Position numbers and translations under genes: made by a program. Positions 739-13,184 of a DNA stretch of 13,750 nucleotides are shown here, one piece after another; the stretch's first letter is position 1; every line of letters begins with the position of its first letter. The notes below the pieces were generated by a model, which saw only the letters and a list, made by a program, of their open reading frames with translations, was not told where the DNA came from and ran no database searches. The stretch comes from a virus. Taxonomy: Duplodnaviria > Heunggongvirae > Uroviricota > Caudoviricetes. The DNA is taken from the IMG/VR virus record IMGVR_UViG_3300037504_000201, positions 64,001 through 77,750 of that record; one strand, given 5' to 3'.

Positions 739-780
739 TACTGTCTCCTTCTCGATCTAATCTCTCTCCGAACTAGCTAT

Positions 781-846
781 ACTATACCATATATCCTAGA
801 ATGTGTCAAGTAATTGCTTGACGCTTCCATACATTCGTGATAGTAT
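781..846. promoter_or_regulatory. Back-to-back divergent sigma70-type promoters
   Basis: Minus strand: TTGACA (809-804), 17 nt, TATAGT (786-781), with a TG extension. Plus strand: TTGACG (818-823), 17 nt, TAGTAT (841-846). The two -35 boxes form the inverted repeat GTCAAG-taattg-CTTGAC. Confidence 0.75.
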
Positions 847-866
847 AGGATTTAGGAGGTGATATA

Positions 867-1079
867 GTGAAAAAGCTAAAATTGAACGTGAAGCAGTTAG
901 CAGAAGAGAGAGGCCTGAGCGTCGCCGATTTGGCGCGCGCGTCAGGCATGGTCTATGACACCGCTTACCGCCTGTTCCAACCTGGGCGAACGCGGATCGA
1001 CTTGGTCACACTGGCCGCCGCTTGCGAGGCGTTGGACGCCGACGTGAGCGACGTACTGGTGTGGAAGGAGGAGGAATAG
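867..1079 (+). CDS. XRE/Cro-C1-type helix-turn-helix transcriptional regulator (HTH_26-like)
   Basis: GTG start after RBS AGGAGGT (854-860). The sequence LKLNVKQLAEERGLSVADLARASGMVYDTAYRL...IDLVTLAAACEALDADVSDVL is a typical XRE HTH pattern. Confidence 0.9.
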   Translation: MKKLKLNVKQLAEERGLSVADLARASGMVYDTAYRLFQPGRTRIDLVTLAAACEALDADVSDVLVWKEEE

Positions 1080-1312
1080 TGAGCGAGAACAAGTTCAAGT
1101 TTACGGCAAGGGTGTTGCCGAACATTGACGTAATCGTAAGGATTTACGTCAATGGTGGTAAAAGCGTCGATGTCCCATTCGACAGCGCCGAAGAGGCCGA
1201 GGCGTTTGCCGACCTGGTCAACGCGCCGCGTGGCGTGAGCGTCAATCAGCGCGCTGATGTGGTCGAGCAAGGATCGACCATCGTGGGTGCCACAATCGGG
1301 AGGATCGGATGA
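1079..1312 (+). CDS. Hypothetical protein, 77 aa
   Basis: GTG at 1079 overlaps the TAG of the HTH gene and follows the RBS AAGGAGGAGG, giving MSENKFKFTARVLPNIDV...GATIGRIG. The track's start at 1022 has no RBS. Confidence 0.75.
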   Translation: MSENKFKFTARVLPNIDVIVRIYVNGGKSVDVPFDSAEEAEAFADLVNAPRGVSVNQRADVVEQGSTIVGATIGRIG

Positions 1313-1407
1313 AAGCAAAGGTGTGGACGGCGCTTAGCCTTGTGCTCGGTGGCGCGGGGTTGCTTTACGTGCTGACCCGCAACGCCGTAGCGATACTGGC
1401 GAGCTAG
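1309..1407 (+). CDS. Small hydrophobic peptide, 32 aa, with one predicted transmembrane helix
   Basis: Below the track cutoff. ATGA overlap with the upstream stop and RBS GGGAGG at 1298-1303. MKAKVWTALSLVLGGAGLLYVLTRNAVAILAS ends just before a terminator. Confidence 0.7.
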   Translation: MKAKVWTALSLVLGGAGLLYVLTRNAVAILAS

Positions 1408-1412
1408 CAAGG

Positions 1413-1443
1413 AGGCCCCACCCGCCGAGGTGGGGCCTTTTTT
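1413..1443 (+). terminator. Rho-independent terminator
   Basis: AGGCCCCACC-cgccga-GGTGGGGCCT followed by a T run. Confidence 0.9.
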
Positions 1444-1494
1444 ATGTCAGTTATACACGGTTCCGTGTTAGTTAGCCGACTTAGTTTTAGCTCC

Positions 1495-1541
1495 TAAAAC
1501 ATTATATATATATTTTAAGGGAATCAATTATGTCAAATTGA
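1495..1541. repeat. 47-bp AT-rich direct repeat, copy 1 (copy 2 at 3261-3307)
   Basis: TAAAACATTATATATATATTTTAAGGGAATCAATTATGTCAAATTGA, 42/47 identical to copy 2. Confidence 0.9.
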
Positions 1542-1552
1542 ATTCTAGCGTG

Positions 1553-1587
1553 GAATAAAAAAGCCCCGCCGGGGTGGGCGGGGCTGG
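1553..1587 (-). terminator. Rho-independent terminator of the leftward cassette; duplicated at 2391-2425
   Basis: AGCCCCGCC (1562-1570) pairs with GGCGGGGCT (1577-1585). A6 at 1557-1562 is the U tract on the minus strand. 33/35 identical to 2391-2425. Confidence 0.85.
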
Positions 1588-1604
1588 GGGGGGCGATTGG
1601 CGGG

Positions 1605-1916
1605 CTAATTGCGGGACTCGACAACCTCCATTCGGTCGTTATCGATCCACAGCCGTTCGACCGATGCGCCGGACTCTGGCGGCGCCGACGTCTCCACAAG
1701 CGACTTGGGCCATCCGTCCTGTACGACGGTGGCAGTCCACTTGCCGTCCACACGCACTGTGTCCCATTGGCCTGGGCGATCCACAGCTCTCACCTCCTCT
1801 CTATACAATCTATCCACGGCCACCGCGATGACCGTGGAGATCGAATCATACCCCATCGCCACAAGCTCTACGGCTTGGGCGTGGGTTTTATCGGGCACCC
1901 TAACCGATTTACTCAC
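1605..1916 (-). CDS. Ribbon-helix-helix (CopG/Arc/MetJ-like) domain protein, 103 aa
   Basis: GTG at 1916 overlaps the upstream stop (GTGAGTAA) and follows AAGGTG. The N-terminus SKSVRVPDKTHAQAVELVAMGYDSISTVIAVAVDRLY has the beta-alpha-alpha RHH pattern. The track start is 1931. Confidence 0.65.
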   Translation of the reverse strand: MSKSVRVPDKTHAQAVELVAMGYDSISTVIAVAVDRLYREEVRAVDRPGQWDTVRVDGKWTATVVQDGWPKSLVETSAPPESGASVERLWIDNDRMEVVESRN

Positions 1917-2289
1917 TGGGCACCTTGCCATTCAATACCGACACGACCGCAGACACCAGCGCAGATTTGGAGTCGAAACTATAAAAAATCTCGGCCCCGG
2001 CATCGAAGCGCTCTCCCGTGATCACGCAGCGCCCGTCATAGCGCGACTCCATTTGCCTGCCGTTGGTCGCCAGGTCGTAGACTACCATAATAGTGTCTGC
2101 GATGTGCGCGCCAGGCTCGCCGGCTTCAGCGGCCGCCTTGGCGTAGCTGAATGCCCACGCCGGGGCGTCCTCGCCAGCGATGAGGACGCTGACAGTTTCT
2201 TCATCGCGCTCGGTTACCAACGCCTTGCGAACGGCCATTCCCCGTCCGAACTCCCGCTTGCGAATCTCGATCTTGATTTTGTGTGCCAT
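1909..2289 (-). CDS. Hypothetical protein, 126 aa, with a degenerate zinc-ribbon-like motif near the C-terminus
   Basis: ATG after RBS AGGAG and directly downstream of the promoter at 2332-2360. Contains MESRYDGRCVITGERFDAGAEIFY. Confidence 0.8.
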   Translation of the reverse strand: MAHKIKIEIRKREFGRGMAVRKALVTERDEETVSVLIAGEDAPAWAFSYAKAAAEAGEPGAHIADTIMVVYDLATNGRQMESRYDGRCVITGERFDAGAEIFYSFDSKSALVSAVVSVLNGKVPSE

Positions 2290-2331
2290 TTGTTTATCTC
2301 CTATTTGGTGGTATTTGTCTCAACTGGTTAT

Positions 2332-2394
2332 ATCGTACCACACAGCGTGGTATATGTCAAGGAATTGCTCGGAGTTTTTAAGGTTAGGTAGAAT
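2332..2394 (-). promoter_or_regulatory. Leftward sigma70 promoter module B with an operator-like inverted repeat
   Basis: TTGACA (2360-2355), 17 nt, TACGAT (2337-2332), with a TG extension. TACCAC-N5-GTGGTA lies across the spacer. Bases 2354-2394 are 38/41 identical to 3196-3236. Confidence 0.8.
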
Positions 2395-2425
2395 AAAAAA
2401 GCCCCGCCGGGGATGGCGGGGCTGG
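2391..2425 (-). terminator. Rho-independent terminator, near-identical to 1553-1587
   Basis: AGCCCCGCC (2400-2408) pairs with GGCGGGGCT (2415-2423). A6 at 2395-2400. Confidence 0.85.
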
Positions 2426-2438
2426 CGAGGGTGCGGGA

Positions 2439-2768
2439 TTATCTGTACTTTTCATCCGGCTCCAGAGCGGGTAACTTATCCCGATGAACAAGCCAAGAGT
2501 TCCCGACCTTCATCCCGGCGCCGAAACGCTCGTGGCGATTCTTGATAAGTGCCCGTGCGCGCCTGGGCGAAATGCCGAAATGGTCCGCAACATCCTGAAC
2601 TGTCATCAGTCCCATCAAGGCGTCGTGACGCCCGGCGATGAACGCCCGTTGTGCCACTTGTTCCAAAGCGTGGCGCACGCGACGATCAGATGCATGACCG
2701 GCGCCGTGTGGAAACATCATACTCATTGCGTTTTCGATTGCCCGATTGACTATGTCATTAGTTTTCAT
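2439..2768 (-). CDS. Helix-turn-helix protein (HTH_17/excisionase/MerR-like C-terminal domain), 109 aa
   Basis: C-terminal LMTVQDVADHFGISPRRARALIK...GMKVGNSWLV fits an HTH-plus-wing pattern. ATG at 2768 overlaps the end of the upstream gene; the track uses TTG at 2774. Confidence 0.75.
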   Translation of the reverse strand: MKTNDIVNRAIENAMSMMFPHGAGHASDRRVRHALEQVAQRAFIAGRHDALMGLMTVQDVADHFGISPRRARALIKNRHERFGAGMKVGNSWLVHRDKLPALEPDEKYR

Positions 2769-3129
2769 CGTCAAGGATATCCCGAACGCGGTCGGTCATC
2801 GGTAGGTCTTCTTCCTCGCAAACCAATGCGTCCCACACCTCGTTGTTAGCCTGATTACGTAGCGCCACCAGGTCGATCTCGACGTCGTGGGTGGGGTCCC
2901 ACATCCCGTGCTCATCGGTGTTTTCGCCATACACCTCACCCAGTACCTCGCTGGTGCTGGGTTGCCAGTAGATGGACGAGTCGCCTGCCTCAGCGCACAA
3001 TTCCTCAAAGCGCTCGGCGACCAGGTCGCCCAGCGCTTCCCCCTGCTCCGGGGTAATGTTGTCGCCCCAGTCGTCGTACAAAGCCGATATGCCCCAGCCT
3101 GAGCCGCGTGTAAAAACTGCCGTTGTCAT
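2758..3129 (-). CDS. Highly acidic hypothetical protein, 123 aa
   Basis: ATG at 3129 after RBS GGAGGAGG, first gene behind promoter A. By hand count it has 31 D/E, 5 R and no K. Confidence 0.85.
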   Translation of the reverse strand: MTTAVFTRGSGWGISALYDDWGDNITPEQGEALGDLVAERFEELCAEAGDSSIYWQPSTSEVLGEVYGENTDEHGMWDPTHDVEIDLVALRNQANNEVWDALVCEEEDLPMTDRVRDILDDEN

Positions 3130-3173
3130 TTGAATCCCTCCTCCTTCGTCTGAACGGTCAATCAACTAAATGT

Positions 3174-3236
3174 ACTATACCACAAGCGGTATAGCATGTC
3201 AAGTAATTGGTCGGAGTTTTTAAGGTTTGGTAGAAT
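3174..3236 (-). promoter_or_regulatory. Leftward sigma70 promoter module A with an operator-like inverted repeat
   Basis: TTGACA (3202-3197), 17 nt, TATAGT (3179-3174), with a TG extension. CTATACC-N6-GGTATAG overlaps the -10 and spacer. Confidence 0.8.
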
Positions 3237-3260
3237 TCAATGTGACTTAATTGATCGCAT

Positions 3261-3307
3261 TAAAACATATATTATATATTTTAAAGGAATCAATTATGTC
3301 AAATTGA
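3261..3307. repeat. 47-bp AT-rich direct repeat, copy 2
   Basis: TAAAACATATATTATATATTTTAAAGGAATCAATTATGTCAAATTGA, same orientation as 1495-1541. Confidence 0.9.
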
Positions 3308-3351
3308 TTGCTCTTGAATGCACTAAACGAGTGGGCAAGCTGGCATGCGCG

Positions 3352-3422
3352 TCTTGTTAACTCTTGTTAAGATTCTTAACAAGTTCTTGTTAACCCGACC
3401 TATTCTTGACAAGGCTTAACAA
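3352..3422. repeat. Cluster of five TTGTTAA/TTAACAA boxes
   Basis: Copies at 3352-3360, 3362-3370, 3375-3383 (inverted), 3385-3394 and 3415-3422 (inverted). Includes the perfect inverted repeat CTTGTTAAG-att-CTTAACAAG. Confidence 0.85.
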
Positions 3423-3432
3423 CACAAGGGTC

Positions 3433-3461
3433 TTGACGGCGGGGTAGAACGGGGGTAGAAT
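3433..3461 (+). promoter_or_regulatory. Rightward sigma70-type promoter with no supported protein gene behind it
   Basis: TTGACG (3433-3438), 17 nt, TAGAAT (3456-3461). Confidence 0.6.
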
Positions 3462-3466
3462 AGGGA

Positions 3467-3534
3467 TGTCTCCTTCCATCTATGGTGGAAGACGAAAGGC
3501 CCGCGACTCCCCAAGCTCGCGGGCCTTTTGATTT
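3467..3534 (+). ncRNA. Candidate small RNA (~65 nt) with a 5' anti-Shine-Dalgarno seed
   Basis: Lies between the promoter at 3433-3461 and the terminator at 3495-3529. It begins UGUCUCCUUCC and has an internal hairpin CUUCCAUC/GGUGGAAG. This is inferred; there are no expression data. Confidence 0.45.
3495..3534. terminator. Probably bidirectional Rho-independent terminator
   Basis: AAAGGCCCGCGA (3495-3506) pairs with TCGCGGGCCTTT (3517-3528), followed by TGATTT. It abuts the stop codon of the leftward operon at 3533. Confidence 0.85.
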
Positions 3535-4021
3535 ACCGTGCGTGGGCGCAACTAAGCGCAAGGAAGCGGCACACGAATGCCGCCTCATCGCGTGTCGGCG
3601 CCAGCTCCATCAGCGCCGGCAGCACCTCGCGCGCGCATCGCTCCGCTTTGTCGTACCATCCCCCGCACCCGACATAGTACTCGTCCGCCCACGCGCGGAA
3701 GGCGCGCATGGCGCGATTGAACCAGGCCGCCCGACCAGCGATGAATACAATTGTCTCGGGATCCGGCGCGGCGCGTGGCGTGTAGCGGACACGCACGAAC
3801 CGCCCGCACTGCTCGACCGGCTCGCATTCCTTCAGTGGCGCCCGTATCTGGCGCGCCACGAGCACCGCCACAACGTCGCCGGGCACCTCGACGCGCTCCA
3901 GTGGGTAATAGTCGGGCTGCTCGTACCACATCGCGCTCAGCTCCGCGCGTGTCGCCACCGGTTGACCGACCACGACCGGCGCGTCGAACAGTGTCTTTGT
4001 CGTCACAACTTGCCTATCCAT
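3533..4021 (-). CDS. Hypothetical protein, ~162 aa
   Basis: RBS GGAGGT at 4033-4028. The GTG/ATG start (4024 or 4021) overlaps the upstream stop, and the gene is the last of the leftward operon before the terminator. Confidence 0.8.
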   Translation of the reverse strand: MDRQVVTTKTLFDAPVVVGQPVATRAELSAMWYEQPDYYPLERVEVPGDVVAVLVARQIRAPLKECEPVEQCGRFVRVRYTPRAAPDPETIVFIAGRAAWFNRAMRAFRAWADEYYVGCGGWYDKAERCAREVLPALMELAPTRDEAAFVCRFLALSCAHAR

Positions 4022-4239
4022 CACTTTACCTCCAATGCCCAGTAGAGCCTACCGGGCCGATATTGCGCCACCGTCAACGTCACCGTCTGGCACGCCAAAA
4101 ACGCCAGCACCGCCAGCGCGGCGATACGCAGAATACCCCGCGCCCCACGCGCCGGACCGTCTACCACGACACGATGGGCGGTGATCACGGCGGCGAGAAT
4201 GATAATCAACGCACGAACTGATTTTAGCACCTCTAACAT
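4021..4239 (-). CDS. Small membrane protein, 72 aa, with two hydrophobic segments
   Basis: ATG at 4239 after RBS AGGAGGAG. Hydrophobic stretches are VRALIIILAAVITA and ILRIAALAVLAFLACQTVTLTV. The track start at 4299 has no RBS. Confidence 0.75.
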   Translation of the reverse strand: MLEVLKSVRALIIILAAVITAHRVVVDGPARGARGILRIAALAVLAFLACQTVTLTVAQYRPGRLYWALEVK

Positions 4240-4249
4240 CTGTCTCCTC

Positions 4250-4435
4250 CTATAATATGGTGGCGATGAACAAAAGAGCGATGAGCGCGGCGGACGCAAT
4301 CCCCACGACGAGCCAGATCAGTTCAATCAGCGGCGTAGTCTCCGGGCCTTGCAGCTCAAAGACCTCCTTATAGCCGTCTGAGTACTCGTATATTTTGCGC
4401 ACGAGTCGCCGCTTGCCTTGTTGCTCTTCGTCCAT
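4250..4435 (-). CDS. Small protein, 61 aa, with a C-terminal transmembrane helix
   Basis: Ends LIELIWLVVGIASAALIALLFIATIL. A purine-rich AAAGAAAGGG stretch precedes the ATG, and the gene fits the operon spacing. Confidence 0.75.
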   Translation of the reverse strand: MDEEQQGKRRLVRKIYEYSDGYKEVFELQGPETTPLIELIWLVVGIASAALIALLFIATIL

Positions 4436-4511
4436 TTCGCCCTTTCTTTCTACTACCCGGCGATACCCCCCTTTTGGGGCGGGTAGAACGCGGGGTAGAA
4501 GGTAGAATCGT

Positions 4512-5831
4512 CTATCTCGCCGGCCCTAGCACTTCCCGGACGCGCTCGTTGGCCTTCCCGCCGGTGTAGCCACGCACGGCCAACTCAATCTGCCCGCGAT
4601 TAAGGCCCATCTCGTCAAGGCGCCGGATCATCGCCGCCTCTTCGTCCTCGTCTTGCTCGTCGCCGCCTGGCAAGGCGTCATTGATCGGCCCGCCGGTGCG
4701 CAAGATGCGCTCAAACTCGTCCCGCCCGACCCACGGCGCCTGTAGCTCGCGCTGTTCCTGGCCGACGAGCTGCACGAACATTCGGCCCGGTGCCTTGATC
4801 TCGGCAGCGTCGCCCGAACCCAAGACAACGTGGCTGGACGACTTTGGCAACTTTAGCGCCGCGCGCGTCGAGAACTGATCGCGCACCTGCGGCGGCATCA
4901 CGCGGTAGCCCACGCTTTGCCCGGTGAGCACGACGTACACGCCATATTGGCGCGCCGTCTGTACGAGATCCCGCAGCGGTTCCCCAATTGCGCCGTCATT
5001 CAGCGCCGCAGTCCCTTCGTCCACCACCACGACCCAGGGGGGCACATCTTGTCCCGTCGCGCCGTTGTACTCGATGAGATTGGTCGCCTTGGGCGCGTTG
5101 GCTTCGTACTGGTCGCGCCGCCGACCAACCTCGGCCCGGCACGCGGCAAGCACCTGCGCCGCCGAACGCCCGTCGCGCGCCACGGGCCACAACAGTTTAT
5201 CCCACTCACGCGCCACGTTGAACTCTGAGCCGTAAGGATCAATCAGCGCCACCTCGACCGTCTCACGCGCCTGGGCAAGCTGGGTAAGCAGTGCCCGAAG
5301 GAACACGCTCTTTCCCCATCCGGAGGCCCCCACCGCCAGCACGTGCATCAGCTCGTGGAGCGGCGCGCTCACCGACTGCATGCCGCGCTCGGTGGGGTAA
5401 GCGCCGATGACCAGATTGTCAATCGTCGGGCGAGAGACGAGCTTGGACAGCGCCACTTGCTCCGGCCATCGCGGCGCCATCGCCTCGTCAACCGCTTGCT
5501 GGACGTTGGCGGGTAGCGCACGCCCACCGATCTGCTCTTGAATCATCGCCATCATTTGCAGCATCGGATTGAAAAAGCGCTGCTCCAGGTCGCGGTAGCT
5601 GTTGCCGGTTTCGAGGTCGAGGATAGCCTTGGTGCCGGGGTCGTAGGCGTAGCGGTCACCGATGACGCGCAAGCTCTCTGCGCGCATCTCTTGCTCGCGC
5701 CAGCGGTACGATTGCCGCACGTTAAGTAGGCGCGTGTAGCGCTCGAACGCGGCGTCGTATAGCTTGAATGCAACGGGGACGCTAAGCGCCCCCAGTCCCA
5801 GCCCGGCCCCCAAGATCGTCAGAACGTCCAT
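4512..5831 (-). CDS. FtsK/SpoIIIE-family ATPase (TraB/TcpA-like DNA translocase candidate) with an N-terminal membrane anchor
   Basis: Walker A HVLAVGASGWGKS, then VALIDPYGSEF, Walker B WVVVVDEG and the ARQYGVYVVLTGQ motif typical of FtsK/HerA-clade ATPases. Hydrophobic N-terminus; RBS GAGGGAG. Confidence 0.85.
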   Translation of the reverse strand: MDVLTILGAGLGLGALSVPVAFKLYDAAFERYTRLLNVRQSYRWREQEMRAESLRVIGDRYAYDPGTKAILDLETGNSYRDLEQRFFNPMLQMMAMIQEQIGGRALPANVQQAVDEAMAPRWPEQVALSKLVSRPTIDNLVIGAYPTERGMQSVSAPLHELMHVLAVGASGWGKSVFLRALLTQLAQARETVEVALIDPYGSEFNVAREWDKLLWPVARDGRSAAQVLAACRAEVGRRRDQYEANAPKATNLIEYNGATGQDVPPWVVVVDEGTAALNDGAIGEPLRDLVQTARQYGVYVVLTGQSVGYRVMPPQVRDQFSTRAALKLPKSSSHVVLGSGDAAEIKAPGRMFVQLVGQEQRELQAPWVGRDEFERILRTGGPINDALPGGDEQDEDEEAAMIRRLDEMGLNRGQIELAVRGYTGGKANERVREVLGPAR

Positions 5832-6105
5832 CGTCTCCCTCGTTCATCGGCTCAATAGCCACCAGCGGCAACCCGTCGGGCGTCCCGCCGGGATGCACGC
5901 ATATCAATACCGCCCCATCCAGATCGCGCAATTGCCCCACCGTGACGCGGCGCAAGGTTGTCAACTGCCACTCCACAGCAAACTCGCCCTCTGGCGGTAC
6001 AAAGCGGGCGATGGGCAAGCCACCAGACACAATCAACTCTCTATCGCGTCCGGCAGCACGCAATCCCTCTTTTGATACTATCCTAAAATCTGTTACCGTC
6101 TTCAT
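5782..6105 (-). CDS. Hypothetical protein, 107 aa, with possible tandem Phd/YefM-like DNA-binding repeats; probably leaderless
   Basis: ATG lies 6 nt after the -10 TATACT and has no SD. MKTVTDFR...ELIVSGGLPIARFVP and RRVTVGQLR...GLPLVAIEP both resemble the Phd/YefM N-terminal pattern. Confidence 0.6.
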   Translation of the reverse strand: MKTVTDFRIVSKEGLRAAGRDRELIVSGGLPIARFVPPEGEFAVEWQLTTLRRVTVGQLRDLDGAVLICVHPGGTPDGLPLVAIEPMNEGDDGRSDDLGGRAGTGGA

Positions 6106-6111
6106 AGTTCA

Positions 6112-6197
6112 AGTATACACGGAATCGGGTATACTGTCAAGCAATTGATGGCAAATGATGGCAAATGCTTGACAAGATTTAACAAATGGCTTATAAT
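6112..6197. promoter_or_regulatory. Main divergent control region
   Basis: Minus strand: TTGACA (6140-6135), 17 nt, TATACT (6117-6112), with inverted repeat AGTATAC-N10-GTATACT. Plus strand: perfect TTGACA (6169-6174), 17 nt, TATAAT (6192-6197). GATGGCAAAT occurs twice in tandem (6147-6166) between the -35 boxes. Confidence 0.85.
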
Positions 6198-6238
6198 GGG
6201 AGCGTCGATTGGATTTTAGTTAGGAAGGAGACTTAAAG

Positions 6239-6652
6239 ATGGATTGGATTAAAGGATCGGAAATTGCTATCGAGGTGTACGAAGAGAATCGGGATCGACT
6301 GGCTAACAAGCTAGTCGATGCTTGGGCCGTCAAGTGCGCGGAACTTGGTATCGGCGTGACCGACGAGGATTTTGTCGCCGCCAAGGACGAGTTCTTGAAC
6401 CGGTTTTTAGGCGCGCCGCGCAAGGCCAAGTCCGTGCCCACCCCCAAGCGCCGCATCGCCGTGTATGACATCAAGGATTGCGATTACTCCTTAAAGTTCT
6501 CAACATCCGATATGGGCATCGTGGCCCAGGCGCGCGAGATGGGCAACGTGTACGAGATATTCGAGGGGAAGTACGCGTTTTACGTGAGCCGTTGCTACGA
6601 CTTTTACGAGGTCGTGGCGTGGCTCGAATCTTTTAATGAGGAAGGAGAATAA
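6239..6652 (+). CDS. Hypothetical protein, 137 aa
   Basis: RBS GGAAGGAG at 6223-6230; first gene behind the consensus promoter. Confidence 0.85.
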   Translation: MDWIKGSEIAIEVYEENRDRLANKLVDAWAVKCAELGIGVTDEDFVAAKDEFLNRFLGAPRKAKSVPTPKRRIAVYDIKDCDYSLKFSTSDMGIVAQAREMGNVYEIFEGKYAFYVSRCYDFYEVVAWLESFNEEGE

Positions 6653-8555: not shown

Positions 8556-8574
8556 AAGGAGGGAGACGAGAGAT

Positions 8575-9576
8575 ATGACCAACAAACTTTTAGCCGCAGA
8601 CCTTGGCTACGGATTCACCAAAGGCCAGGCCGTCATCAATGGGGAGACACGCAGCACCTTCTCCCCTTCTGCCGTCATTGTGCGCCCGCCCGTCGGATTC
8701 TCAATCGGGCAAAAGCACATCGGCGTCGAGATCGACGGTGTACAGTACCTGGTCGGCAGCCAAGTGCGCAAGCTGGTCCCCACTGACCGGGACCACCAGT
8801 TGACGTCGGACTGGACCAAAACCGACGAATGGCTGGCGCTATTTATCACGACCGCGAGTGTCTTGTTCCCCGGCGGCGGGCAGATTGCCGTGTGTACCGG
8901 GCTACCCTTGGGGCACTACACTGAAGAGAACAAAGCGTTCCTGCAAGAGCGCATCCAAGCCGTGACGTCCATCACGCCCCTGGAGGGGGACCCCATCGCC
9001 GTGGACTTTACGACGGTGCGCGTCGTCCCGCAACCGTGGGGCACGTTCCTGTCGCTGGCATTCGACGCGCGGGGGGAGCTGACCAACGACGCGTTACTTG
9101 ACCGCCGCGTGCTGGTCGTGGACATCGGCAGCCGCACGACTAACCTGCTGGTCACCATCGACCTGGATACGGTGGACGAGGAAAGCACCACCGTGCTGGA
9201 AGGGCTGTGGGATTGCGCCGCCCGGCTCAAGGCGTGGGCCGAGGACGAGGGGCAACCCATTACGTCCGCCCAGGCACTGGATTCGCTCAAGAGCGGAAAG
9301 TACCGCTGGCGCGGGCGCGAGTACTCGTGCCGTGATACCGCCGACAAGATTCTCAACGACTTTGCCTATCGGGTGCAATCCGCAATCAGTGCCCGCTCCG
9401 GCAGCGGACTTGGCCAGATTGATAAAATCTTGGTCTCCGGTGGCGGTGGCGCGATGCTCAACGGGCGCCTTCAACGCCTGATCGACCACGGCGACATGAC
9501 CGTGGTGCCAGACGCCTTCTGGGCCAACTCAACCGGCTACATACGCTTCCTGCGCTTCTTACAGAGTCGGCAATGA
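8575..9576 (+). CDS. parM: ParM/StbA-family actin-like ATPase
   Basis: Phosphate-1 ADLGYGFTK, phosphate-2 VVDIGSRTT and adenosine VSGGGG motifs, plus TGLP and VVPQPWG. 333 aa. Confidence 0.9.
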   Translation: MTNKLLAADLGYGFTKGQAVINGETRSTFSPSAVIVRPPVGFSIGQKHIGVEIDGVQYLVGSQVRKLVPTDRDHQLTSDWTKTDEWLALFITTASVLFPGGGQIAVCTGLPLGHYTEENKAFLQERIQAVTSITPLEGDPIAVDFTTVRVVPQPWGTFLSLAFDARGELTNDALLDRRVLVVDIGSRTTNLLVTIDLDTVDEESTTVLEGLWDCAARLKAWAEDEGQPITSAQALDSLKSGKYRWRGREYSCRDTADKILNDFAYRVQSAISARSGSGLGQIDKILVSGGGGAMLNGRLQRLIDHGDMTVVPDAFWANSTGYIRFLRFLQSRQ

Positions 9577-10202: not shown

Positions 10203-10232
10203 TTGACAGCCGGGCCAGGTTTGTGGTAGAAT
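10203..10232 (+). promoter_or_regulatory. Sigma70-type promoter for the methyltransferase operon
   Basis: TTGACA (10203-10208), 18 nt, TAGAAT (10227-10232), with a TG extension. Confidence 0.7.
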
Positions 10233-10258: not shown

Positions 10259-10375
10259 CCGTGGCAAGCCCAATCAGACAGTAAACCGCGCTACTATTCA
10301 GCGCCGGTAGCCGCTACCTTTGTCTGGGTAATTGCCACCGGCACCGGCTCTGAGTAGTGACGCGGTTTTTTTATT
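10259..10375 (+). ncRNA. Structured leader RNA with two interleaved pairings and a terminator-like end
   Basis: A (10261-10280, GTGGCAA..CCCA..CAGACA) pairs with A' (10321-10338, TGTCTGGG..TTGCCAC). B (10283-10308, AAACCGCG CTACT TCAG GCCGGT) pairs with B' (10343-10368), followed by a T run. The order is A-B-A'-B'. Confidence 0.6.
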
Positions 10376-10397
10376 CCCCCACACGCAAGGAGAAATA

Positions 10398-11939
10398 ATG
10401 GATAGAATCAAAATAGAAGACGTTGTAATTGTCGAGAGCAGACAACGTCGCTTGAGACGATGGCAGGTCGAACGCATTGCGAGCAAAATGCAAGAGAAAG
10501 GCTTTAACGTCTCGTACCCAATTACATTGGAGATGGATGGACAATCATTGATTGACGGTGGGCACAGGTTGGCAGCGGCAAAAGAGGCTGGCATTGAATC
10601 TGTGCCTTTTATCGTTACGGACGAGGACCCCATAGCCCATTCAATCCGCTGCAACTCGGACGGCGAGGACACCGAATCGCATGACGTGTTCGACTTGGCC
10701 GTTCTTTGCTCGAATATGTCCAACGATGGAATGACCGGCGCCGAGATCGCGCAAAGATTGGGATGGAGCACCGCTCCAATGGTTACCTATCATAAGCAAA
10801 TCAAGGAACGCCTGCATCCGAGGTGCTTTGATTTAGCTACCGGGGAATTAAATAAAAACGATAATTTGTTTAATAGCATCGACGACGATTCATTTAATCC
10901 ACAATTAAATAAATTTAATTGGCGAGTAACGCATCTTATGGAAATCGTCTCCGAAATCCCCTACACCGACCGGGCGAGTTACCGGGCGCAATGGCGCGTT
11001 ATCTCTCAGATACTTGAGCTTGCGGACAATGATAAGAAGATCACCGCTGCCAAGATCGCCAAGATCGCCAAGCGCGAATCATGGCACGCGCAACTAGGGC
11101 GTGTGATACGTGACGAATTGCTTCAGGATGTTCCATTGCGCGACTGGATAAGGCTGTGGCATAGCGTTAGGCATGGTGTATTTGGTGACAAGCAAGATGA
11201 TGAGGACTTGAGCAAGATCAAGCAAGCCATTGCGGCGCTAAATGAGCGTGCGACGGGCGTAAAACTATACTGCGATGACGCTGCAAAGCGGATACCGCAA
11301 CTTGATGATAATTCTATCGCCCTGGTTGTGACAGATCCCCCCTACAACGTCACAGATTATGATTGGGACGACAAGGGCACGCCGGATGAGTACGTGCAAT
11401 GGCTGATTGGTATACTGGAATTACTCAAGCCCAAGCTAAAGCAGGACTATCACTTGTTTATGTTCTGCGCGCCACAGCACGAAGCAGTGATAGAGATTGC
11501 ATTGCGTAACGCTGGATGGCCCATTAAGTCAAAGGTGATTTGGGAGTATCGCAATCTCGTGCAAGGTCGTGACGTAAAAGACAAATTCATCGTCAACTAT
11601 CAGCCGTGCTTCCACATCGGTACCCATGCGCTGAACTGGTCGCCGGAATGGAGTGATAAACGATTTGCCGTCCAGAATCACGCAGCGCCACAGAGTAACT
11701 TTAAAGACGGCAAGGATCACCCGCACCAAAAGCCGATTGAACTAATCGAGCTATTTGTTAAAATCGGAAGCAGCCCAGGCGATATAGTTATAGACATGTT
11801 CGCCGGAAGCGGCACGACCGGCACGGCTTGTAACAATCTTGGCGCGCGAAGATGCGTACTGATTGAACAAGATGACGATTACTGCTCTGTGATAGAGCGC
11901 AAGTTAAAGATAAGGAGAATATCTGAATGGCAGGGATAA
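10398..11939 (+). CDS. ParB-N (ParBc/Srx) domain + HTH + N6/N4 DNA methyltransferase (beta-order motifs) fusion, 513 aa
   Basis: ATG at 10398 after RBS AAGGAG. ParB-like PITLEMDGQSLIDGGHRLAAAKEAG; HTH GMTGAEIAQRLGWS; catalytic VTDPPY precedes HPHQKP and the SAM-binding DMFAGSGTT. Confidence 0.9.
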   Translation: MDRIKIEDVVIVESRQRRLRRWQVERIASKMQEKGFNVSYPITLEMDGQSLIDGGHRLAAAKEAGIESVPFIVTDEDPIAHSIRCNSDGEDTESHDVFDLAVLCSNMSNDGMTGAEIAQRLGWSTAPMVTYHKQIKERLHPRCFDLATGELNKNDNLFNSIDDDSFNPQLNKFNWRVTHLMEIVSEIPYTDRASYRAQWRVISQILELADNDKKITAAKIAKIAKRESWHAQLGRVIRDELLQDVPLRDWIRLWHSVRHGVFGDKQDDEDLSKIKQAIAALNERATGVKLYCDDAAKRIPQLDDNSIALVVTDPPYNVTDYDWDDKGTPDEYVQWLIGILELLKPKLKQDYHLFMFCAPQHEAVIEIALRNAGWPIKSKVIWEYRNLVQGRDVKDKFIVNYQPCFHIGTHALNWSPEWSDKRFAVQNHAAPQSNFKDGKDHPHQKPIELIELFVKIGSSPGDIVIDMFAGSGTTGTACNNLGARRCVLIEQDDDYCSVIERKLKIRRISEWQG

Positions 11940-12511
11940 CAAGGGTGAACATCACCGACGGTGTCAGTGGTCGCGGCGCGCAAAGATTTAGGGATGCGCA
12001 AAGACTGTGGCCCGTTGCTAATAAATTATACAGGGAAATCTTTAATGATATGGGATGCTCTCTTAAAGACGGTGATGCGCTACTCGATTGCGCGGGTGAT
12101 GAATTTTACGCCGGGTACGACCACTCGCTTGGGATAGACACGGTTTTAAGAACTGAGCAAGGTAACATACTCACAATGCAAGAGAAGTTCTTGTTTACGC
12201 CATTTAACACTGTTACTGTTGAGTATATGCAGAACCAAACAACGGGCGAGCATGGCGATTGGTTTAATATCAAGTGCCAGCTTTACTTTGTGGGCTATGA
12301 TTATCCCCAGACGGGTAAGAGATTTGTTAGTTGGATTTTATTGGATTGGGCGCGCGTTGTCTTGGCGACGCAAAAGGGTCAAATAAACTGGAAGCTAAGG
12401 CCAAATAAATGGGATGGAGCAAAAGCAAATTTTAGATACGCCTCAATAGCTGATATTCCAAAATATTGCTGCATTCGCAGGGGCGGCCGTTGGCAGGATG
12501 GTAGATTATAA
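11927..12511 (+). CDS. PD-(D/E)XK-like nuclease-fold protein
   Basis: RBS AAGGAG at 11912-11917; start overlaps the methyltransferase 3' end. GID-x11-TMQEK...TVTVEY resembles a PD-(D/E)XK core. Confidence 0.55.
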   Translation: MAGITRVNITDGVSGRGAQRFRDAQRLWPVANKLYREIFNDMGCSLKDGDALLDCAGDEFYAGYDHSLGIDTVLRTEQGNILTMQEKFLFTPFNTVTVEYMQNQTTGEHGDWFNIKCQLYFVGYDYPQTGKRFVSWILLDWARVVLATQKGQINWKLRPNKWDGAKANFRYASIADIPKYCCIRRGGRWQDGRL

Positions 12512-12714
12512 TGTCTAACCTAATCCACCGTCAACTCGACAACATCCTAACCTGCTACGAGCAAGCCGCAACGCTTCCGCGCAACAGCCCCGGCGCATGG
12601 CACAATGCACTAATCAAGGCCGTGCGCGACGCGGGATATGATGTGCGCAATTATCGAGAAGCCAAGGAGAAAGCAAGTGAAGTCATCAACGCTTACACCC
12701 GACCAACGCGCTGA
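12511..12714 (+). CDS. Small hypothetical protein, 67 aa (paralog 1)
   Basis: TAATG overlap with the upstream gene; similar in sequence to 12677-12880. Confidence 0.75.
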   Translation: MSNLIHRQLDNILTCYEQAATLPRNSPGAWHNALIKAVRDAGYDVRNYREAKEKASEVINAYTRPTR

Positions 12715-12880: not shown

Positions 12881-13184
12881 CCCAGGCGACGTCTTACGCA
12901 TTGCCGGACACTGCGGCGTCGTCGTCGCCGTGTATCACTCAAGCGACGCGCCGCCGGTGCTCAAGGTGGTATTTGTAAAGAACGCTGTTCGCCAGAACGT
13001 CGCCGAGTTGGTTGACTTGGGTGTTGTGCCGGATCGCGTAGTGCAACCGGCGACAGTTGATGATCTAAGAGAGGAATGGGGGACAATCATAGACAGACAA
13101 CAGCGCTTCGTTGACGAATTGATAATCTTGGCAGGAGACACAGAGTGCCCCCACCATCACCGCCGCCAAACAAACCCACAGTAG
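12867..13184 (+). CDS. Hypothetical protein, 105 aa, with a KOW/SH3-like N-terminus
   Basis: ATG at 12867 after RBS GAGGTG; begins MENVNPGDVLRIAGHCGVVVAV. The track start at 12747 lies inside the upstream gene. Confidence 0.7.
   Translation: MENVNPGDVLRIAGHCGVVVAVYHSSDAPPVLKVVFVKNAVRQNVAELVDLGVVPDRVVQPATVDDLREEWGTIIDRQQRFVDELIILAGDTECPHHHRRQTNPQ

Follow-up and report, generated by a model that had tools for sequence, protein, structure and literature searches.

Does the short interval between positions 3433 and 3534 of this DNA, where a promoter runs almost directly into a terminator, encode a small RNA, and if so, against what would this RNA be directed? The window (i.e. the whole stretch analysed) is the final 13.75 kb of a single 77.75-kb contig whose source is a tidal-flat metagenome. 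The genome is that of an uncultivated tailed phage, and not of a conjugative or plasmid element; the window is its non-structural (early, DNA-handling) region. Besides the genes for an ATPase, an actin-like protein and a methylase listed in Table 1, an HTH protein is recognisable there, most of the other genes in the window being orphans. The gene set of the phage comprises 126 genes from a simple caller, with a codon-bias model trained on long ORFs, and the start sites come from the same caller.

Table 1. Features of the small RNA locus, its surroundings and its predicted targets (window positions unless stated otherwise)
Feature	Position	Strand	Remarks
Array of CTTGTTAA / TTAACAAG 10-bp boxes	3352..3422		Just upstream of the promoter; repeat families D1, D4, D9, I2, I6, I13-15
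-35 hexamer TTGACG	3433..3438	+	Promoter scan: 10/12 match, 17-nt spacer
-10 hexamer TAGAAT	3456..3461	+	Promoter scan; second copy of the GGGGTAGAA direct repeat, 3441-3462
Predicted small RNA, ~63-67 nt	3468..3532	+	Start at G3468 inferred; 3' end in the U-tract
Anti-SD seed, exact complement of GGAAGGAGACA	3467..3477	+
Hairpin 1, 8 bp, 3-nt loop	3473..3491	+	3473-3480 with 3484-3491; buries the 3' half of the seed
Bidirectional rho-independent terminator	3493..3534	+	Inverted repeat I4, 12/12 complementary; folds; hairpin 3493-3530
162-aa gene, last of an early leftward operon	3533..4021	-	Its mRNA ends at the same terminator as the candidate RNA
FtsK/SpoIIIE-type ATPase	4512-5831	-
Actin-like ParM/ALP protein	8575-9576
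DNA methylase	10332-11939
Target: RBS of first gene (137 aa) behind the 12/12 rightward promoter	6223..6232	+	10 nt perfect
Target: RBS of 247-aa gene behind an early promoter	742..751	-	10 nt perfect
Target in two blocks: RBS of 72-aa gene and upstream CCACCATA	4241..4263	-	10 bp with one G-U (RBS); 8 bp (CCACCATA)
Target: RBS of 328-aa gene	6640..6648	+	9 nt perfect
Weaker target: RBS of ParM-like gene	8558..8567	+	10 bp, one G-U
Weaker target: RBS of FtsK-like gene	5833..5841	-	9 bp, one G-U
Weaker target: RBS before GTG at 13145	13133..13140	+	8 nt perfect
Second orphan promoter-RNA-terminator unit	genome 20213-20322 (L005:213-322)	+	Outside the window

Promoter scanning and folding bear out the arrangement described in the earlier note, a promoter TTGACG-17-TAGAAT at 3433-3461 leading into a strong terminator about 65 nt further on. 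At the sequence level, a short non-coding stretch is here enclosed by its own promoter and its own rho-independent terminator. The phage clearly employs host-type promoters: the whole contig holds 23 promoter-like sites matching at 10/12 or better, vs. 4.3 +/- 2.4 in genomes simulated by first-order Markov chains (a five-fold enrichment), and at least 16 of the 23 are intergenic and located 6-54 nt ahead of a co-oriented start codon. Three promoters directly abut a start codon (leaderless mRNAs), the A of the ATG being the 7th base after the -10. Because of this 7th-base rule, we place the start of the candidate RNA at G3468. A host-type RNA polymerase would thus begin at about this base, 7 nt after TAGAAT, and would stop at the terminator ~65 nt later.

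Folded from 3467, the RNA shows 6 free nucleotides, hairpin 1 and the terminator hairpin, with a folding energy of -36.4 kcal/mol (z -6.7; 0/200 shuffles as good). Hairpin 1 on its own reaches -9.8 kcal/mol (z -3.1) and beats 199/200 shuffles, while the terminator on its own has a z of -6.4. The terminator hairpin counts 14-16 bp and is followed by a U-tract, which on the + side (four U, GA, three U) is better than that of the - side (three U followed by C, G, U, C, U, U). Rfam covariance models gave no match at 3400-3560, even at E up to 1.

Instead of a non-coding RNA, the promoter might serve a 21-aa peptide translated from the ATG at 3466 on a leaderless mRNA, as the earlier note had suggested for an alternative. 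The three phage promoters set straight against start codons would provide a precedent, but here the A of the ATG is the 5th base after the -10 and not the 7th, i.e. 2 nt too near, and a transcript starting at 3468 would lack part of the ATG. The frame has no SD sequence, crosses the terminator hairpin and ends with a TGA (3529-3531) in the U-tract, so that most transcripts would carry no usable stop. The second unit described below has no ATG at its start either. We regard such a peptide as extremely improbable.

The name of orphan unit, given in the earlier note, fits the + strand, where the nearest gene downstream of the terminator is 2.8 kb off, but not the - strand: being bidirectional, the terminator is used by the leftward 162-aa gene too, its stem beginning ~3-4 nt beyond the stop of this gene. 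The 162-aa gene is to be taken as real because 55 homologues of similar length, from a representative library of 1.8 billion proteins, align with its product up to the C-terminus. This protein, for which no Pfam or PHROG family was matched, is a member of an unnamed, fairly widespread family. On the + strand, a 187-aa ORF (3482-4045) was discarded as a shadow frame of this conserved minus-strand gene.

With such a convergent layout, the RNA might act in cis only, as does the OOP RNA of lambda, by pairing with the last 35-40 nt of the leftward mRNA (the common terminator hairpin) and with read-through RNA, to both of which it is fully complementary; its anti-SD match would then be a by-product. 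Its effect would be double-strand cleavage upon pairing, unless transcription merely insulates the operon. The bidirectional terminator held in common, 3 nt past the 162-aa gene, speaks for this reading, as does the fact that the second unit likewise faces the end of a leftward gene block. Moreover, size and build recall OOP (77 nt) and sar (68-69 nt), as these RNAs are presented in the relevant passages of a 2025 review of phage small RNAs (PMC12197685). However, no coding gene, and no RBS with a canonical ORF behind it, lies opposite the candidate, the overlap being limited to the 3' untranslated terminator of the 162-aa gene and containing no coding sequence. A role restricted to cis also leaves unexplained both the UCUCCU start that the two RNAs have in register and the agreement of the seed with the early RBS consensus, and we consider it distinctly unlikely.

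The first 11-14 nt of the predicted RNA are the mirror image of a leader/RBS module, (GAU)GGAAGGAGACA, which marks a subset of the early genes, above all the first gene behind strong early promoters. The 11-mer GGAAGGAGACA has three copies in the 77.75-kb genome, namely two RBSs and the seed site, and the 10 genome copies of AGGAGAC correspond to 8 RBSs, 1 gene-internal site and 1 seed site. The six complementary sites listed in the earlier note are all real; each lies at RBS distance from a start codon and pairs over the length that had been claimed. To these we can add a 14-bp duplex containing one G-U with the gene at genome 3090, which is the best predicted one. When the costs of opening hairpin 1 and the target structure are paid in co-folding, the net pairing energies of the top eleven targets range from -12.2 to -6.7 kcal/mol. 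The 72-aa gene with the two-block leader occupies 4021-4239.

We compared the seed with random ones in which the CUCC core was kept and the other seven positions were randomised (n = 1500). Seven start regions pair perfectly with the real seed over at least 9 nt, vs. a mean of 0.18 for random flanks, and only 1/1500 random flanks equals the real seed. A control sequence resembling the 16S tail finds no start region with pairing of at least 9 nt, and 6 when the limit is lowered to 8 nt. Several unlinked targets therefore show complementarity to the seed beyond chance. Among the top targets, one encodes a DUF5131 protein and the others are orphans with neither a Pfam nor a PHROG match. The proposal that replication, partition and transfer genes are repressed together does not stand up to this: the best targets are orphan early genes, in most cases the one that comes first after a strong early promoter, and the leaders of the ParM-like and FtsK-like genes need a G-U pair.

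The GAGAC extension of the target sites goes beyond a generic SD, as had been pointed out: it is absent from 49/49 structural genes, in addition to the rarity of equally good random flanks. GGAGAC-type RBSs precede 11/77 non-structural and 0/49 structural genes (P = 0.0066). When only GGAG-bearing leaders are considered, the extension to GGAGAC is found in 11 out of 48 non-structural vs. 0 out of 20 structural genes (P = 0.026), and it is the commonest extension of GGAG in non-structural genes. Of the 11 GGAGAC genes, six come first after a strong early promoter, at the head of early operons. The structural genes have SDs of GGAGG/GAGGT type or weaker ones. Thus, the phage uses two RBS dialects, the GGAGAC type being confined to non-structural genes. 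The objection that GGAGAC might be a non-specific RBS is answered by these counts as far as the phage itself goes: among its 126 genes, GGAGAC is not the general SD.

The way in which the seed is presented agrees less well with a role in pairing. It is the exact complement of the RBSs, as had been claimed, but only 5-6 nt of it are unpaired in the best predicted fold, the remainder being held in the 8-bp stem of hairpin 1; in the centroid fold, even GUC is paired, with GAC. Known SD-blocking sRNAs usually expose a C/U-rich motif. Two further points go against a repressor: on the minus strand, which is the coding strand at both sides, the same bases form a perfect copy of the early RBS module, and the terminator is required anyway for the leftward operon.

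The match to the RBS module would be explained equally well by an inert relic, i.e. an early leader with its RBS module, left over or duplicated on the minus strand past the leftward terminator, with a + strand promoter that is weak or silent. The motif has the sense orientation of both flanking operons, 8/10 AGGAGAC copies are true RBSs, and the likeness to two other leaders continues upstream of the SD. About 4 promoter-like matches of such quality are expected by chance per genome. Furthermore, the -35 resembles the neighbouring TCTTGAC boxes, and the -10 belongs to a repeat with further copies at 4481-4508. Against this, a relic needs three coincidences at one spot, namely a promoter match that stops 6 nt short of the motif, a U-tract that is better on the + than on the - strand and an 8-bp hairpin, the latter being unnecessary for an inert leftover. 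Neither a start codon nor a promoter of the module is left, and the layout is repeated in register at a second site. We judge an inert relic to be somewhat unlikely.

The repeats that overlap the promoter deserve a separate description. Direct repeats of GGGTAGAA are found at 3441-3462 (+), inside the candidate promoter, and at 4479-4508 (+), and the 8-mer GGGGTAGAA has all four of its genome copies at 3441-3462 and 4481-4508. The copies at 4481-4508 are situated in the gap that separates the FtsK-like gene from the small gene next to it, and have no -35 or promoter context. Given this occurrence, the TAGAAT hexamer may be present for a reason other than a promoter, and the GGGTAGAA repeats may constitute a putative protein-binding repeat. 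In favour of a promoter, TAGAAT with the following AG is also the -10 of the promoter at 10203-10232, which looks functional and heads the methylase operon (GGTAGAATAG). The idea of a parC-like centromere made of GGGGTAGAA repeats was abandoned, as there are 2-3 repeats per site and GGTAGAAT is a plain -10 elsewhere.

Rearrangement to the left of the unit is a further point in favour of a relic, since the region left of ~3340 differs among strains and would be a recombination-prone spot. Contigs of related strains swap or delete cassettes left of ~3340: in two other runs, they either pass from 818 straight to 3216, leaving out 2.4 kb, or connect ~3325-3342 with the terminators of the cassettes at 1557 and 2395. 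The block of small leftward cassettes (818-3340) thus varies from strain to strain and can be swapped, and similar promoter and AT-rich sequences delimit it. Between this block and the promoter, the box array possibly represents a putative regulator-binding site, which we assign to the unit only with reservation. In the genome, the box 8-mer has 4 copies, all of them within the array at 3352-3422, and one TTAACAA box is found at 6179, in the spacer of the 12/12 main rightward promoter (6169-6197). A 40-nt AT-rich inverted repeat (3232-3312) adjoins the array, the two together resembling an origin or operator. For this AT-rich, iteron-like region, a replication primer RNA was considered and dropped, the promoter pointing away from it.

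The minus-strand copy of the module could also have a function of its own. In read-through RNA, a hairpin-held SD would serve a micro-ORF of 23 codons beginning with ATT, or would dock a ribosome. The ATT lies 6 nt after GGAGAC, which is the spacing typical of the class, and GGAGAC pairs with GUCUUC in the minus-strand fold. As noted before, however, this SD has no start codon after it: ATT apart, neither ATG, GTG nor TTG follows for ~40 nt. The site is behind a terminator and has no promoter of its own, the ORF would enter the box array, and the second unit offers just a 16-codon ORF with an SD spacing of 2-3 nt. Since the + strand promoters would also be left unexplained, we consider a minus-strand function very unlikely. 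A type I toxin-antitoxin pair was rejected: the opposite strand holds only the 23-codon ATT frame without a promoter and, at the second unit, a 16-codon non-hydrophobic frame.

The second unit, to which several of the preceding arguments refer, is placed where the last rightward gene is followed by the final leftward gene of the structural block. Its promoter (TTGACA-17-TACAAT, genome 20213-20241) matches at 11/12. By the 7th-base rule, its RNA of ~72 nt would start at A20248 with the letters AUCUCCUCCUU, which come close to the universal 16S 3' tail sequence and of which all 11 nt are unpaired. The RNA ends in a terminator with six U (-33.4 kcal/mol, z -5.0). The two units can be aligned without gaps and in register at CTTGAC, TA-AATAG and TCTCCT (RNA +2 to +7), while their spacers and RNA bodies are unrelated. 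A -10-like hexamer followed by CTCCT within 4-9 nt occurs at 3 genome sites, and is accompanied by a -35 in these two units only. Under the same randomisation, the second seed finds 4 start regions with pairing of at least 9 nt (P = 0.003). Its best targets are a different set, of AAGGAGGAG type, and pairing of at least 7 nt concerns 18/77 non-structural vs. 0/49 structural genes. Searching viral contigs for the same design (-35, -10 with AG, TCTCCT) gave 1 match, an ordinary pre-gene promoter without terminator, as chance predicts.

On balance, we consider it fairly likely that a real small RNA is made from the unit, because a relic leaves unexplained the promoter 6 nt before the motif, the + side U-tract, hairpin 1 and the second in-register unit. 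The description of a short, terminated, non-coding transcript with its 5' end tuned to a special RBS class is supported on sequence grounds. We are less confident of the anti-SD mechanism, since the larger part of the seed sits in a stem and since the case is drawn from sequence. The reading that the unit is a tailed-phage gene whose product, a small non-coding RNA, represses early RBSs is accordingly put forward tentatively, as a good possibility that falls short of even chances.

According to this reading, the RNA would consist of a short free 5' end, GUCUC, followed by the 8-bp hairpin and by that of the terminator. Pairing would begin with the docking of the free GUCUC on GAGAC, the extension specific to the class, and would then proceed into the SD as the growing duplex opens hairpin 1. 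Binding of the 30S subunit would be blocked, which would lower translation of the module-bearing early genes. The exposed AUCUCCUCCUU of the second RNA would pair with the other strong early SD type, AAGGAGGAG, and jointly the two RNAs would act as a brake, made of RNA, on the translation of early genes, leaving the structural genes alone. With a second RNA of this design in the genome, small RNAs may well be a means by which the phage damps the translation of its early genes.

A stronger version, which we rate as unlikely, would be a translational timer of two RNAs with a common promoter design and a 5'-terminal UCUCCU, by which the early genes are shut off as a class. The RNA studied here would be matched to GGAAGGAGAC(A) sites and the RNA of genome 20248 to AAGGAGGAG sites, and structural genes, with their other SD forms, as well as leaderless mRNAs would be untouched. 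The extended early RBS would then be maintained by selection as an address label, and the system would be the counterpart, in RNA, of RegA/RegB in T4. If this is true, a whole temporal gene class is marked by an extended RBS 'address' and silenced by one 65-nt RNA, which would amount to a cheap, protein-free timing of gene expression. It would also explain why the SD of some early genes has the extension GAGAC, which is mismatched to the usual 16S rRNA tail sequence.

Trans-acting sRNAs of the LhrC and RoxS/RsaE types in Gram-positive bacteria pair with many SD regions through a C/U-rich motif; they are cellular, carry several loop-exposed motifs and bind generic SDs. By analogy, the candidate RNA would work most like these bacterial C/U-rich SD-blocking sRNAs, but it comes from a phage, and its single motif, at the 5' end, is lengthened to match the phage-specific GAGAC. 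The proteins RegA and RegB of T4 silence early mRNAs at ribosome sites. The outcome proposed here, a class-wide shut-down of early translation, is the same, but these are proteins and not RNAs and the analogy is one of role only. In P22, sar, which has its own promoter and terminator and limits an early function, is transcribed opposite a single target gene, whereas the candidate has no opposite ORF and at least 7 complementary RBSs scattered over 78 kb.

With regard to likenesses, the phage RNAs treated in the passages of the review cited above provide several. sar is a phage RNA of equal size, is complementary to an RBS and blocks the RBS of ant (PMC12197685). The c4 RNA of P1 and P7 pairs around an RBS with repeated complementary sites, beyond its own antisense strand (PMC12197685), and the two-block match of the candidate to the leader of the adjacent operon (4241-4263) is comparable. 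However, c4 is processed from the transcript of its target, has its pairing bases in loops and acts on one operon, whereas the candidate has its own promoter on the opposite strand, no excision from a target transcript and a stem-bound seed. OOP of the lambdoid phages, at the cII 3' end, is convergent as well: this short RNA, which has a promoter and a terminator of its own, lies where an early gene ends, next to an origin-like region (PMC12197685). It differs in overlapping the cII coding end and in acting via RNase III, the candidate overlapping a terminator only. In the passages of the same review on 'Shine-Dalgarno' and 'ribosome binding site', no phage RNA directed against the phage's own early RBS class is described (PMC12197685). 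The known RBS-blocking phage RNAs (sar, c4) each guard one gene. If our reading is right, the SD-blocking design is thus known, and what differs is its aim at a class of the phage's own early RBSs.

Relatives of the phage were looked for in several collections. No match was obtained by blastn in phage and plasmid collections, and no relative was found among metagenome contigs, or among viral contigs by neighbouring protein and DNA patterns. In a set of 5.8 billion proteins, the 162-aa protein has no close homologue of near or shorter length. The distant homologues of the 162-aa protein and of the FtsK-like protein have other gene neighbourhoods, on contigs without the downstream region or a unit of such design. 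The DNA itself is present in four runs, as DNA contigs in each. Relatives with 85-95% identity are present as short contigs in three other runs, and one of these contigs covers 3467-3733 with 29 differences (not itemised). Among the strain variants near the unit, 3431 T>G is outside the -35 hexamer.

Finally, we observed other promoter-like elements in the window. TTGACA-17-TATACT at 6105-6140 (-) abuts the ATG at 6105, whose A is the 7th base after the -10; the 107-aa ORF 5782-6105 probably opens a leaderless mRNA and stands at the head of the leftward operon with the FtsK-like gene. At 12505-12534 (-) lies TTGACG-18-TATAAT (11/12), an orphan promoter-like site that points antisense into the rightward operon at the junction of the genes 11927-12511 and 12511-12714, and possibly yields an antisense RNA. 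The elements TGGTAGAAT / AGGTAGAAT at 3228-3236 and 2386-2394 (+), the 3228 copy having the TG of an extended -10, are directed rightward, back-to-back with two leftward cassette promoters. Rightward transcripts from 3228-3236 would likewise stop at the 3493-3530 terminator.
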